Positions 20,032-24,424 of a stretch of DNA of 64,000 bases are shown in pieces. The stretch is taken from positions 212 to 64,211 of the IMG/VR virus record IMGVR_UViG_2667528172_000003; one strand, written 5' to 3'. The position numbers and the translations under genes were made by a program. How positions within the stretch are numbered: position 1 is the first letter of the stretch; each line of letters opens with the position of its first letter. The notes beneath the pieces were generated by a model, which had not been told where the DNA came from, did no database searches, and saw only the letters and a program-made list of their open reading frames with translations. This stretch comes from a virus.

Positions 20032-20066
20032 AGTGAGATGTGGAAAAATGTTCGAAATAACGTGCT

Positions 20067-20094
20067 ATTTAACATAAGGGTTCTTACCCGCACC
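20067..20094 (-). other. XerC/XerD recombination site (dif/psi-like), copy 1
   Basis: GGTGCGGGTAA-GAACCC-TTATGTTAAAT; XerD arm identical to E. coli dif, XerC arm 9/11, 6-bp spacer. Confidence 0.85.
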
Positions 20095-20243
20095 GACGAA
20101 AATGGACTCGATTAAAATGTCCCCTTAAAGCCATAAAAGTAGCGATTAACTAGGCTGAATATCGGTCTTTTCGAACACAACATTTTCATAACATTTCACG
20201 GGTATTGCAGTTCACATGAAATGAATGCTCAAAGCCGTATTTT

Positions 20244-20972
20244 TCATTTTCTTGGTGCAGGAATCTGTACTTCAGGCCAGCATTTGCAGTTCGGCAAACA
20301 TCCGGCGTGTCCGGTCATACCGTCCAGCGTCGGCGGGTTATCCCAGCGCACAAATTTATCTTTCATCTTTCGGTGAGAATCACGCGTTCCAGCCCCTTCG
20401 ATACGCCACCAGTAGCCCTCTGAGCCAACCGAAAGAGCTCTGGCCTGCGTCAGCGCGCCGGTAGCTCGTCCAATCTCTGTGCGGGCAATCAGCTGCGCCC
20501 TGCTGGCGGCCACGTCACCGGAGGCCATAATCATCTCGTAGAGCTGATCCGGACGTTCGCCAGTGATAACCGCCTGCATTGCACGCTGTTGTATGTCCAT
20601 CACGCGATCTGCAGCTTCCAGCGGCAGGGACTTCATCAGCTGAATCTGGCGGTATACGATATCCTGCGCCACCTGCCCGACAGGGGTATTACCCACCACA
20701 TCGCGCAGGCCAGCGCCGATTTCCTCTGATACCGATTTCCACAGGTTCCATTCCTCCTGCTCGACCTGGGCAAACATCCTTCGCCCGACCTGCTCTGCCC
20801 AGTCGCTGATTACCTCGGAATAGTCCACCAGCGTTTTCGAAATGCTGTCAGCGCTAGTCTGTGAACCATCGTAGGTACCATCGACGATCTGCCCTATCTG
20901 GTTTGCTATCGCCAACAGGCTTTTTCGATACTGGATCTCCGAACGACGGCGGAGGGCTGGTTTCAGATTCAT
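20244..20972 (-). CDS. Minor head morphogenesis protein (SPP1 gp7/Mu F-like)
   Basis: RAQLIARTE, Y.W...G..TRDSH, GHAG..PNC.C motifs; ATG with GGAGG RBS. Confidence 0.88.
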   Translation of the reverse strand: MNLKPALRRRSEIQYRKSLLAIANQIGQIVDGTYDGSQTSADSISKTLVDYSEVISDWAEQVGRRMFAQVEQEEWNLWKSVSEEIGAGLRDVVGNTPVGQVAQDIVYRQIQLMKSLPLEAADRVMDIQQRAMQAVITGERPDQLYEMIMASGDVAASRAQLIARTEIGRATGALTQARALSVGSEGYWWRIEGAGTRDSHRKMKDKFVRWDNPPTLDGMTGHAGCLPNCKCWPEVQIPAPRK

Positions 20973-22299
20973 CCTCCGACCACTGGGCCTTCGCATGGTC
21001 AATATCCTCGTCGGTAATGGATGCGCCAATACCCGTCACGCGCGCCGTCTCCCTGAGGTCGGTTAATGCGGCGGCGGGAGGCATCCCCAGCTCACGCACG
21101 GCGGTCGCCAGTGCGGTAGTGGTGTTGGTTGCCACGGTTGAACGGTCAACGTCTGACATCTGCCAGAGGGGGTTAAATTCGAACGCAAAATCGTCCGGCA
21201 GCGGCTCCCCAAACTCCGAGCGGTGAAGCACGTCATAGAGCAGACGAACTGGGCCACGTAGCGTATTTTCCTGCGCGGCACCGACGTCATCGTAGTAGTT
21301 CGCCAGATCCGAATCGCCCGTTGAAAACCCTTTCGGCGACTGGCGAAAAAGGCGAACCAGCGGAATGCCGACGGCTCCAGCAATATCCTCCTTGAACTCG
21401 CTCAGCAGATCAGATAACCCGGCGAACGAGTAGGAGTGCGTTTCGAAGGTATCTTCAGCATCAAAGAGAGACATCCCCTCATTGGTCTGGAACTGGCGCA
21501 CCATGTCCATTTGTTTGAGCAGCGCTTCGTATGGTTTTCCACCCATCGCAATAATTTTGCGCAGTTCCTTGATTTTTGCCGTGCGCAGATGCGCTTTGTA
21601 AGCGAGCTGTGCCGCACCAACACTCGTACTGTCATACGATGTCAGGCGGTCGAAGATACGCTCTACAACGGACATTCCCCACTCGTTTTCTGTGAGAGCT
21701 TGCTGGTACGGTAGGGTTATCCCATCCATACGAATCAGCCGGCTGTAATTCACCGTCCAGGGGGGAATACCCTGTGCAGAAGTAACGATTTCGTAAGTTT
21801 CGGGTTTACCAAGCTCAGGCCCGAGTGTCTTGATGCGTCGCCCGAGATTAGGGTTAATCATCCAACGATCGAGAACAGCGAGGCCTTTAAAGCTGCCTTT
21901 TCCCACTTTATCCAGCACCAGAGGCGTCAGAGGTGCCTGACCCTCAATGAGGATTAGCCCAACGGCACCACCATACAGCCTGGACCATTTCAGTATGAGG
22001 TTCAGCCGCTCCCAGAGTTTTAGCTCTTCAAATCGGGCCTCCAGAATCCCTCGCCGCTTTGGGTCAATTTCGCTGGTTATTCTGGCCCCTTTTTTTGTCA
22101 TATCGTCGGGCTTTGCATCAACAGCTGCGCCGATGATCCATGAAGAACGATACGCCCATTCCAACAGCAGACGATTGCGGCTGGTGTAATTGGCTCGATA
22201 AGTTGACGCTGCATGCTGATTTGGCTGCTGCATGCCAACTCGCGCGACAAAGTTATCGTAAGAGTCGGCTGTGGCGACTCTTCCTGTTTTTTTCGCCAT
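20854..22299 (-). CDS. Portal protein (DUF1073-like)
   Basis: 481 aa after terL; YRSSWI...VD..PDDMT, WSRLYGG, WG.SV, IPL.RLF..SP.GF motifs. Confidence 0.88.
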   Translation of the reverse strand: MAKKTGRVATADSYDNFVARVGMQQPNQHAASTYRANYTSRNRLLLEWAYRSSWIIGAAVDAKPDDMTKKGARITSEIDPKRRGILEARFEELKLWERLNLILKWSRLYGGAVGLILIEGQAPLTPLVLDKVGKGSFKGLAVLDRWMINPNLGRRIKTLGPELGKPETYEIVTSAQGIPPWTVNYSRLIRMDGITLPYQQALTENEWGMSVVERIFDRLTSYDSTSVGAAQLAYKAHLRTAKIKELRKIIAMGGKPYEALLKQMDMVRQFQTNEGMSLFDAEDTFETHSYSFAGLSDLLSEFKEDIAGAVGIPLVRLFRQSPKGFSTGDSDLANYYDDVGAAQENTLRGPVRLLYDVLHRSEFGEPLPDDFAFEFNPLWQMSDVDRSTVATNTTTALATAVRELGMPPAAALTDLRETARVTGIGASITDEDIDHAKAQWSEDESETSPPPSFGDPVSKKPVGDSKPDRADRRWYLRWFTD

Positions 22300-22304
22300 A
22301 GCTT

Positions 22305-23921
22305 TTATGCTCCGAGCTTAGACCAGATATCGAGAGAGGAATCCATTGGCGCATAGTTGATCATCACTGAGTCAGCCAGGTTAGGCGACTTAGTGCCATC
22401 AGGTTGCTTATTAACTGATATTTTCCCTACGCCATTAATGGAATAAGTCGGTTGTGAAAGCTCGATGATGAGTTTGTCTTTGCTCTCCATCGCACCGCTG
22501 ATGGAAATGATTTCGTCAGGGTCGTAGGGCATCTTCTCAACCACTGCACGGTATGTGTTTCTAAACAACTTGCGGAGATGCCACCAGCTCTGTGCTTTAG
22601 CGTTGGCGAAGAAATCCTTGTTAAGCCGCGCATTCTGTCCGTTGTCGCCGCGCACAGCTTCGTCCTCAGGGTCAAACACACCGCCACTGCCACGGAAAGG
22701 GGTAGCAAGCATGATTGGACGCTGCTCGGCTTTACGTAGCTCATTGATGGCTCTGGCATCACCTCGAACGCCAGCGCCCAGCCCATCCTCGTCAAAGCGA
22801 AACTCTTCGAGGCGATCCTCTTCGCAGAAACCGAAAACCTTCTCAACAGACTGGTAAATATCACTGCCAACACCGGACCACTCCCGTACATTCTCAAGCA
22901 GGAAACCGTGTCGGGTAGAAAATGAGTTTTTATCCCGCCCTTCGTCGGCGACGTCCATTGCGCCCAGGCGTTTGCCAGTTGGCAGGATTCCCAATGTGAT
23001 ATGTGCATCGACGGCAGCCTGTACCCATTCTGAGGGGATCAGCACACCTTCAGCTGACGCGCTGTAGTTCAGGTCTAATTCCTGTGCCACAACAACCGGG
23101 TTATCGATTTTGTCGCATTCCTTGCGATACCACTCATCGTCTTTACGTGGATCACTGCGCCAGTGGAATGTAAACACAGGGATTTTCCCGCTGTGCCGTT
23201 TCTGGGCAAAAGGGTTTGCCATACCGTTGACCGATGAAAGATCTATACGGCAGCGTGTTGTTTGAGAAAGAGAAGCCTCAATAAGCATCGGTCGCTTAAG
23301 GAATGCCGCCTCATCCACGAAATAAAGCGTGGTGCGGTCACCACGTCCGATATTATCGCCTGCTTCCCCAGTAATCACTGAGCCGCTCTCCGGAAACTCC
23401 ACCCGCATATAAGGTGCATGTTTCTTATAGTTCCAACCTCCCCGGAATTCGACGGGCAGCATTTCAACGAATTTACGGGCTTTCCAGAACAGCGCTTTTG
23501 GGCTGCCGGTACTGTCGACATATTCCTCTTTACGGGAACCGAACCCGATCACCATTTCTTTGTTGAACAGGCAAAGCGAACAGGCCAGACCGATAGAGGT
23601 CCAACTAAGCCCCATTTCGCGGCTTTTTTCTGTCAGTCCGTTCTCTAGCCCCTTGCGGCGTTCCATAATCCAGTTTATCCATTCTTCCTGTTTCGGAAAC
23701 AGCAAGAATGGTATGGACACGGGAAGCCCAAAATCGAGGTTACGCGGGTCCGTCGTCATCCCCCAATCAATAATAAATTGTGCTGGATTATCACGGTAGA
23801 ATGCCCTTAACATCGGCAATGTTTCTGGATGTTGACGAATACGTTGTAAACGTTCCATTCTCCACTCGAACACCTGCACATAATCAGGGTTTTGGAAATC
23901 AAAAGGAAATGGAATAGGCAT
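22305..23921 (-). CDS. terL: Terminase large subunit
   Basis: [13 protein letters not shown]ase motif, [13 protein letters not shown]alker B, G.DVADEG.D and SPNLADS nuclease motifs. Confidence 0.92.
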
Positions 23922-23952
23922 TTTTCTCTTTTAACCACACAGGAATTGATGT

Positions 23953-24369
23953 ATGAGTTTTTCTAGGCTTTTGTCCCACTTCACAACCCTGAAATCTGAA
24001 CAAGTTGGCTCTACCAATTACGTACTTGGAGCGTTCCAATCAGACATTTCAGGGCAAAGTCGAACTATTTTAATTGACGTATCTCACCAAAGCAGAACGC
24101 AAGCTAATTATCTGTCCAGCCTAAATATGATGATGGGCAAATGGGACTGTTATAACTTGGTGGTTTACTTAAATTCTGCAACGCAAACCCTCAGCCCAAG
24201 CATTAAAGCGAATGTCTGGTGTTTCGTAGATGCTAATGCACTCCCATTAACGGTTAATGGATATGAGATATTCCCTCTTATCAACCAAGATCCGGAGCAG
24301 GTTCATTATGAGGGTATGCTGTGCTTTTCACCCAGTCACCGAGCATGCGTAACTGAGGACAGCATTTAG
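23953..24369 (+). CDS. Hypothetical moron (138 aa), antisense between terS and terL
   Basis: AGGA RBS 8 nt before ATG; fills terS-terL gap; no recognisable family. Confidence 0.65.
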   Translation: MSFSRLLSHFTTLKSEQVGSTNYVLGAFQSDISGQSRTILIDVSHQSRTQANYLSSLNMMMGKWDCYNLVVYLNSATQTLSPSIKANVWCFVDANALPLTVNGYEIFPLINQDPEQVHYEGMLCFSPSHRACVTEDSI

Positions 24370-24396
24370 CAGGAAAAATGCGGGTAAATCGTCTCT

Positions 24397-24424
24397 ATTT
24401 AACATAATGGTCGTTACCCGCACT
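24397..24424 (-). other. XerC/XerD recombination site (dif/psi-like), copy 2
   Basis: AGTGCGGGTAA-CGACCA-TTATGTTAAAT; same orientation as copy 1. Confidence 0.85.

Follow-up and report, generated by a model that had tools for sequence, protein, structure and literature searches.

Xer recombination is known from three settings: the resolution of chromosome and plasmid dimers, the integration at dif of phages that carry no integrase, and the poorly understood dif modules of Acinetobacter plasmids. At psi, the site of plasmid pSC101, XerCD acts together with PepA and ArcA; at cer of ColE1 it acts with PepA and ArgR, and at chromosomal dif with FtsK. Here we describe two 28-bp sequences of this kind in a provirus from the IMG/VR database (record IMGVR_UViG_2667528172_000003, positions 212 to 64,211; this stretch of 64,000 nucleotides is called the window throughout), where they flank the genes for the large terminase (terL), the portal protein and a Mu F-like (MuF) head protein. 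From comparisons of sequence we consider it probable that both are genuine recombination sites of the XerC/XerD type, similar to psi, belonging to a family placed at block junctions in the late operons of many temperate phages of Enterobacterales. A full-text search of the literature returned no description of such sites in the late operons of tailed phages.

Two Xer-type sites bracket the packaging and head genes

A first, sequence-only reading of the window had proposed that a directly repeated pair of Xer sites encloses this gene block, and direct inspection of the sequence bore this out: the two 28-bp cores lie in the same orientation on the minus strand, 4330 bp apart. The cores and the genes within and immediately outside the bracket are:

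20067-20094, minus strand: core of site 1, consisting of XerC arm GGTGCGGGTAA, central region GAACCC and XerD arm TTATGTTAAAT; position C, at the junction of MuF and DUF2213
24397-24424, minus strand: core of site 2, consisting of XerC arm AGTGCGGGTAA, central region CGACCA and XerD arm TTATGTTAAAT; position A, at the junction of the small terminase gene (terS) and terL
20244-21029, minus strand: Mu F-like minor head (head morphogenesis) protein (Pfam PF04233, E-value 5.9e-13), inside the bracket
20854-22299, minus strand: portal protein, Phage_portal_3 / DUF1073 (Pfam PF06381, E-value 6e-97), inside the bracket
22305-23921, minus strand: large terminase, terL (PHROG 2, E-value 3e-28; annotated as TerL in relatives), inside the bracket
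23953-24369, plus strand: antisense moron of 138 aa, between site 2 and terL, ending 27 nt from the core
24570-25172, minus strand: terS-like gene with weak matches to helix-turn-helix and small-terminase models, just outside the bracket
18779-19981, minus strand: DUF2213, scaffold/protease-like (Pfam PF09979, E-value 2e-38), directly downstream of site 1

Comparison with the dif arm sequences of E. coli and Yersinia tabulated in PMC2731167 confirmed that the XerD arm of both sites is identical to that of E. coli dif, and it is also that of Yersinia dif. The XerC arm departs from dif at two of 11 positions, and at its first base as well in site 2, so that 20 of 22 arm positions in site 1 and 19 of 22 in site 2 match dif, with the correct spacing between arms. 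When the window was searched with a 21-base arm pattern, allowing up to three mismatches, sites 1 and 2 were the only matches in 64 kb; 0.01 were expected from shuffled sequence, and a chance origin is improbable, as originally argued. The central regions of the two sites are unlike at three of six positions. Both sites also share the motif CATTTTTCC, situated 16 nt beyond the XerD arm, and Pfam and PHROGs matches upheld the proposed content of the bracket, namely the MuF-like head protein, portal, terL and one antisense moron, with terS outside. The order of late genes on the minus strand is Q, endolysin, spanin, a tyrosine recombinase, the terS-like gene, site 2, the antisense 138-aa open reading frame (ORF), terL, portal, MuF-like gene, site 1, DUF2213 and capsid.

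The 138-aa moron has no match in Pfam, NCBIfam, PHROGs or PADLOC. It occupies a slot, between the site A unit and the start of terL, that many relatives leave empty, their core being 25 nt from where terL starts, and that contains three unrelated, reverse-oriented small ORFs across phages (in the window, L211 and L161) and a 473-nt alternative in strains X2 and X15.

Each core is part of a larger non-coding unit

Alignment of diverged copies showed that each core sits within a discrete non-coding unit of ~230-260 bp that begins at the stop codon of the upstream gene. About 150-175 bp of conserved blocks and variable stretches are followed by the core, and then by the motif ~16 nt past the XerD arm. 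The accessory-like DNA on the XerC side amounts to 145-150 bp in the window and up to ~175 bp in relatives, and it falls into two classes, designated class I (as at site 2) and class II (as at site 1). The corresponding features in the window are:

20095-20243, minus strand: accessory-like region of site 1, class II, between the stop codon of MuF and the XerC arm; a GGACATTTTAAT block close to the core is conserved
20178-20193, minus strand: ArcA-type direct repeat TGTTA-N6-TGTTG within the accessory-like region of site 1
20012-20066, minus strand: XerD-side flank of site 1, with CATTTTTCC 16 nt after the core and an intrinsic terminator (20012-20031) ahead of the DUF2213 start (19981)
24425-24569, minus strand: accessory-like region of site 2, class I, between the stop codon of the terS-like gene and the XerC arm; a GGGTGC block lies close to the core
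24527-24532, 24506-24511 and 24495-24500, minus strand: three phased TAT(G/T)CA boxes within the accessory-like region of site 2
24370-24396, minus strand: XerD-side flank of site 2, containing CATTTTTCC

Nine diverged representatives of class II align in conserved blocks and all class II sites retain the XerD-side flank; in all nine the TGTTR-N6-TGTTR repeat begins at -99 relative to the core (-99 to -84 in site 1), a putative binding site for ArcA. Class I blocks likewise recur in alignments of 25 and of 19 diverged representatives. The nearest approach to an ARG box in class I was rejected as a canonical one, its half-sites being 5 rather than 4 nt apart and lying at -85/-95 rather than -106.

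The unit behaves as an insertion that is either present or absent. In relatives without site C, the MuF stop codon and the terminator are 12 nt apart instead of ~250 nt, and in relatives without a site between terL and portal these two genes abut; accessory DNA and core are thus gained or lost together. A decayed terL-portal unit in locus L185 (3760-4003) has kept its accessory DNA and outer XerD arm, with unrelated bases in place of the XerC arm and central region, from which it follows that a site can vanish while its unit stays.

No sigma-70-type promoter was found in either intergenic region, the sole Rfam match was a chance Trp-leader hit (E-value 0.5) on the terminator, and RNAalifold applied to 19 diverged class I units gave a consensus of -3 kcal/mol with no compensatory pairs and no conserved RNA structure. 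With no promoter, RNA family or conserved fold to account for it, the conservation looks like that of protein-binding DNA. A plasmid origin of the accessory DNA was rejected: blastn against 72,556 plasmids gave only eight short matches, none of them to the cer or psi families.

Occurrence and variation among related phages

The exact arm pattern was retrieved from more than 120 viral contigs, as a lower bound, among the matches listed, and from 16 stretches of species-representative genomes, all from Enterobacterales (Citrobacter, Enterobacter, Klebsiella, Pseudocitrobacter, Pantoea, Rosenbergiella and Entomohabitans). As the sequence-only reading had anticipated, sites occur at the same two boundaries in relatives, including E. 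coli DX6 and 25-07338, Citrobacter, Enterobacter, Pseudocitrobacter and many IMG/VR proviruses. The core of site 1 is found at the MuF-DUF2213 junction in L005, L006, L004, L135, L138, L150, L151 and others as well, and that of site 2 is the second commonest variant, with 31 copies in the viral-contig matches listed. Cultured carriers are Klebsiella phage GZ7 (position B), 'Elizabethkingia' phage EKP1 (positions A and C, each with one change in the XerC arm) and Yersinia phage YP3.

All sites lie between genes and point in the direction of late transcription, and sites on opposite strands never occur in one locus. They occupy four or five fixed positions: between Q and the lysis genes, downstream of Q; between terS and terL (A); between terL and portal (B), where the portal gene adjoins an unrelated, PBSX-type terL; between MuF and DUF2213 (C); and, in one P22-like phage only, between the coat and gp4 genes. 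This last unit (L127, 4127-4155), which lies between P22-type coat and gp4 tail-accessory genes, is class II-like, with a TGTTA-N6-TGTTA box and the central region CACAAA, and its location extends the site family beyond a single type of head module.

Related sequences were encountered in other surroundings. A 275-kb plasmid of Klebsiella sp. (L143, 56-1763) carries a fragment of a head module with B and C sites 1.7 kb apart and an internally deleted portal gene. A Pantoea contig with no phage genes nearby contains AGTGCGGGTAA-TGTATA-TTATGTTAAAT (L136, 4197-4224), with the XerC arm as in the phage sites, and this is probably the chromosomal dif; a 387-kb Pantoea plasmid contains AGTGCGGGTAA-TGATAG-TTATGTTAAAT (L144, 1046-1073). 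The XerC-arm variant of the phage sites therefore occurs outside phages also.

To avoid selection by the motif itself, 80 loci were fetched by portal similarity, and the 62 with full flanks were counted. One site was present in 39 of these loci, two in 17 and none in six; a bracketing pair, as implied by the window, is consequently not the general state. Across the 73 sites in this set the XerD arm was never changed and the XerC arm was changed in 12. Published descriptions of Xer recombination sites (xrs) specify two 11-bp arms separated by a central region of 6-8 bp, with inner arm halves that are partly palindromic, and a XerD arm better conserved than the XerC arm beside a central region that is not conserved (PMC11724359); the window sites agree with this architecture and with this pattern of arm conservation. 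Judged by sequence, they show every feature of XerC/XerD sites.

The central region occurs in 17 variants in the viral-contig matches listed, and it differs by position: CGACCA, CGGTCA or CATCCC at A, CAGTCA at B, and GAACCC, GAACCA or GAACTC at C. All 41 co-resident pairs of sites are in direct orientation and 40 of them are unlike at three to four of the six central positions, in keeping with the earlier suggestion that unlike spacers disfavour recombination between the two sites of one genome. The exception is phage YP3 (L004), in which portal and MuF are flanked by two class II units of 260 bp (3600-3860 and 5934-6261) that are identical, central region included. Such a duplication is the structure expected from insertion of a cassette circle into a genome with a single site, and it should be unstable.

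Traces of recombination at the core

Two proviruses have the structures predicted for deletion between unlike sites. The left flank of L130 is that of site A, and its right flank that of site C, of locus L063, with the switch exactly at the core; identity with the counterpart is ~93-94% for each flank across 400 nt or more (on the left, 17-20 of 20 per bin), and the provirus lacks terL, portal and MuF. In L129, an isolate provirus, a PBSX-type terL and B-type left flank are joined to a C-type right flank and DUF2213, without portal and MuF. By their sequences both are predicted deletion products with the junction in the core, and, as two 11-nt runs are all that the parental sites have in common, assembly chimeras are unlikely.

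Exchange between genomes has left similar marks. The 160 distinct sites compared have flanks that fall into 24 clusters on the left and 32 on the right, found in 47 combinations, showing that flanks reassort at the core. Three chimeras have kept the central region with the left flank and one with the right, as expected if exchange can occur at either edge of the central region. In strains X2 and X15 (contigs from sequencing runs) the segment corresponding to window positions 23790-24395 is replaced by 473 other bases, with identity resuming 2 nt from the XerD arm. Public sequencing runs, available as assembled contigs in which rare molecules are invisible, showed no deletion joint; the assembly of one run branches at site 1. 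Taken as they stand, these sequences indicate that recombination at the core has occurred in nature, as both deletions and reassortments.

The distribution of mosaic breakpoints was assessed by a change-point scan of 28 dereplicated loci with A and C sites, in pairwise-ungapped coordinates, where pair counts do not represent independent events. Change points numbered 13-15 per 100 nt between the core and the next gene, 0.6-1.9 in accessory DNA and 4.5-7 in gene bodies, the sites thus being enriched about two-fold over gene bodies. Within intergenic DNA, 31-32 change points fell between the core and the next gene and one to three in the accessory DNA.

A proposed mode of action

We propose that host XerCD, with accessory factors (PepA, and ArcA for site 1), would bring two sites together and exchange strands where the central region meets the arms. 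Recombination would be efficient between sites whose central regions are identical, and such pairs would arise in dimers of the phage genome, in tandem prophages, or where two related phages occupy one cell, the outcome being resolution or block exchange. The two unlike sites of a single genome would recombine rarely, and the event would delete the terL-portal-MuF block. The identity of the enzyme as XerCD, the accessory factors involved and the benefit to the phage are all inferred from these comparisons. Since a single site is what most relatives carry, its main function is most probably psi-like, resolving or exchanging DNA at one cognate site, and less probably the mobilization of a bracketed cassette; the packaging genes would then be bracketed as a result of two junctions being occupied.

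The idea that the packaging core is a swappable cassette is consequently sustained in part: flanks reassort at the core and natural block deletions have their junction there, while mosaic breakpoints are not confined to the sites. An excised cassette would have no replication origin, so its excision would lead nowhere and could not work as a reversible switch. As purposes, escape from Avs immunity and the disabling of particle production by a switch are speculation.

The prophage and its neighbourhood

The prophage lies at the 3' end of the tmRNA gene (956-1319), bounded by 24-bp direct repeats GTTCAACTCCCGCCAGCTCCACCA at 1296-1319 and 39133-39156. Two further features bear on the interpretation of the sites:

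25417-26430, minus strand: an extra tyrosine recombinase (Yrec; Pfam PF00589, E-value 1e-14), between the lysis genes and terS
37825-38997: prophage integrase

The recombinase at 25417-26430 was rejected as a XerC or XerD orthologue, scoring 26-29 bits on the NCBIfam models against cut-offs of ~330, and it has no PADLOC match. The gap between this gene and terS (25230-25330) contains GATA(T/C)GCCGCA three times in direct orientation, a candidate array for binding of either the recombinase or the small terminase.

Past attR a second integrase, of the P4/CP4-57 type (39324-40601; NCBIfam PRK09692, E-value 1e-272), starts a separate island, so that two elements lie in tandem at ssrA. This island contains two very large co-oriented ORFs (48271-52290, 1339 aa; 52847-56425, 1192 aa). 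Stretches of low G+C content (0.31-0.34, relative to ~0.5) at 2001-3000, at the left end of the prophage (ORF 2060-3094, plus strand), and at 41000-43000, in the neighbouring island, are likely foreign cargo.

Weighing alternative explanations

Several observations weigh against the interpretation of these units as psi-like XerCD sites at which late-operon blocks are resolved or exchanged. Class I accessory DNA contains no canonical ARG or ArcA box, and the ArcA-type repeat of class II is on the strand opposite to the psi repeat. The sites are dispensable, being absent in six of the 62 portal-selected relatives and decayed in one. Sites of the psi type preferentially resolve within one molecule, making frequent exchange between separate genomes less likely, and the deletion junctions are absent from 5426 complete E. 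coli genomes, where matches stop ~25 nt past the core, so that such events must be rare. Both deletion products retain the central region of the left site, which places their junctions in the 11-12-nt identical XerD arm, where microhomology-mediated deletion would give the same product. The densest change points in the scan (31.8 per 100 nt) occur at a terL-portal junction that has no site, and the window and E. coli 25-07338 have the whole site 1 unit in common and diverge only inside DUF2213. The expectation that phylogenetic breakpoints would coincide with the sites thus holds as an enrichment over gene bodies and fails as an exclusive association, the site-less junction being richer, and the sites are neither the sole nor clearly the main places of block exchange. 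The deletion junctions in the identical arm, the dense change points at a site-less junction and the shared site 1 unit would be anticipated if the units bound XerCD or accessory proteins, or were conserved for some other reason at the level of DNA, and the exchanges arose by general recombination on ~250-bp patches of homology ('linker sequences') with deletions through arm microhomology; the two identical 260-bp copies in YP3 would be equally usable by general recombination. We regard this explanation as unlikely, if deserving of serious attention. Units of classes I and II share just the two 11-bp arms, too short for RecA-dependent exchange, and yet two independent proviruses have a class I left flank joined precisely at the core to a class II right flank; the core is also where exchanges between genomes break off (L041-type, L057-type, X2 and X15), and change points avoid the 150-bp accessory part, which offers the longest homology.

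A second alternative assigns the sites to a phage tyrosine recombinase, in the window that at 25417-26430 and elsewhere perhaps the prophage integrase, with the likeness to dif stemming from shared ancestry of recombinases and their sites. That a complete gene, in the orientation of the late genes, lies ~1 kb upstream of site 2 counts against host XerCD, and this gene always accompanies the same terS type and the AGTGCGGGTAA-CGACCA core. Its link to that one terS type is, however, exclusive: it is absent from most site-bearing loci, no such gene lying within 2-4 kb of any terL-portal-type site or of A-type sites with other terS genes. Its low scores on XerC/XerD models point the same way, as does the invariant XerD arm, identical to host dif, which selection for binding of a host protein predicts. 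We therefore find this account improbable; the recombinase is unlikely to be the enzyme for the whole site family, and a local role is possible. There is very little to commend a third view, in which the units are transcription elements of the late operon (promoter, Q-utilization site, terminator or small-RNA gene) and their resemblance to dif is incidental. It would fit their invariably intergenic, co-directional placement, one position being directly downstream of the antiterminator gene Q, and the intrinsic terminator after class II units. That terminator is also present in relatives without the unit, though, and neither the absence of a promoter, an Rfam family and compensatory pairing in the 19 copies folded, nor the close, correctly spaced match of the arms to dif with its Xer-like pattern of variation, would be expected of such an element. 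Finally, if XerCD does act at these sites, the exchange might itself be adaptive: junction-specific central regions would serve as addresses by which the host enzymes trade whole blocks of head and packaging genes (terL, portal-MuF), kept in register, among related phages or prophages, for example replacing terL or portal variants recognized by Avs-type defence, and a host or competitor could cripple a prophage by excising its packaging block. We think this doubtful. Host-driven, psi-like recombination at late-operon junctions remains the explanation we favour.

Implications

If this interpretation is correct, psi-like sites in the structural operon of integrase-bearing tailed phages constitute a fourth setting for Xer recombination, recurring at block junctions in Escherichia, Citrobacter, Enterobacter, Klebsiella, Pantoea, Yersinia and P22-like phages. 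They would offer a concrete mechanism, open to test, by which temperate phages acquire part of their modular mosaicism and prophages decay to packaging-defective remnants. Should the sites serve only in the resolution of dimers or tandem prophages, they would still represent an undescribed use of a host system by tailed phages. With cultured carriers (Klebsiella phage GZ7 and Yersinia phage YP3) and E. coli lysogens in existence, the question is experimentally tractable.

Comparison with known Xer systems

Integrative mobile elements exploiting Xer (IMEX), among them CTXphi, TLCphi and gokushoviruses, resemble the present case in that a phage genome carries a dif-like site for host recombinases. 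These elements have no integrase and enter the chromosome at dif, whereas this prophage has its own integrase (37825-38997), 24-bp att repeats at the tmRNA gene and internal sites, and we rejected its assignment to this group. The dif (pdif) modules of Acinetobacter plasmids offer a parallel of another kind, in which gene blocks bounded by Xer sites occur in varied combinations in related replicons, as here. According to published descriptions such modules are plasmid-borne, contain accessory cargo and have alternating (inverted) sites; the phage sites are in tailed phages, delimit essential virion genes and are all direct. With 41 of 41 pairs direct, no locus having sites on both strands, and a tailed prophage as the replicon, an Acinetobacter-type module was likewise rejected.

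Chromosomal dif has the same XerD arm and a 6-bp central region like those of the phage sites, but several phage sites can share one replicon. Identity with chromosomal dif was set aside in view of the lack of TGTATA, the presence of accessory DNA, and the location of two sites in a prophage at the tmRNA gene rather than at the terminus. The cer site of ColE1 combines an Xer core with accessory DNA on the XerC side, as the phage sites do, and the half-palindromic class I box TGCAY..ATTCA recalls the ARG box of cer. That site has an 8-bp central region and its ARG box, TGCAT-N4-ATTCA, at -113 to -100; the phage sites have 6 bp, with 5-nt spacing in the box and a position of -95 or -85. With this shorter central region, and the nearest box differing in both spacing and position, a cer-type assignment was also rejected.

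The psi site of pSC101 differs from the phage sites in its setting, the latter being in the late operon of an integrated, integrase-bearing tailed prophage, with up to two per genome and unlike central regions; and class I sites (site 2) have three phased TAT(G/T)CA boxes in place of an ArcA-type repeat. The likeness is nonetheless extensive. Both have an 11-6-11 core, the XerD arm of psi, TTATGTTAAAC (NC_002056), being identical to that of the phage sites at 10 of 11 positions, and both have conserved non-coding DNA on the XerC side, which we counted as equivalent to the ~160-200 bp of accessory DNA characteristic of psi-type sites. The ArcA-type repeat of psi occupies -96 to -81, on the other strand; that of class II phage sites (site 1) starts at -99 and is centred ~90 bp from the core.

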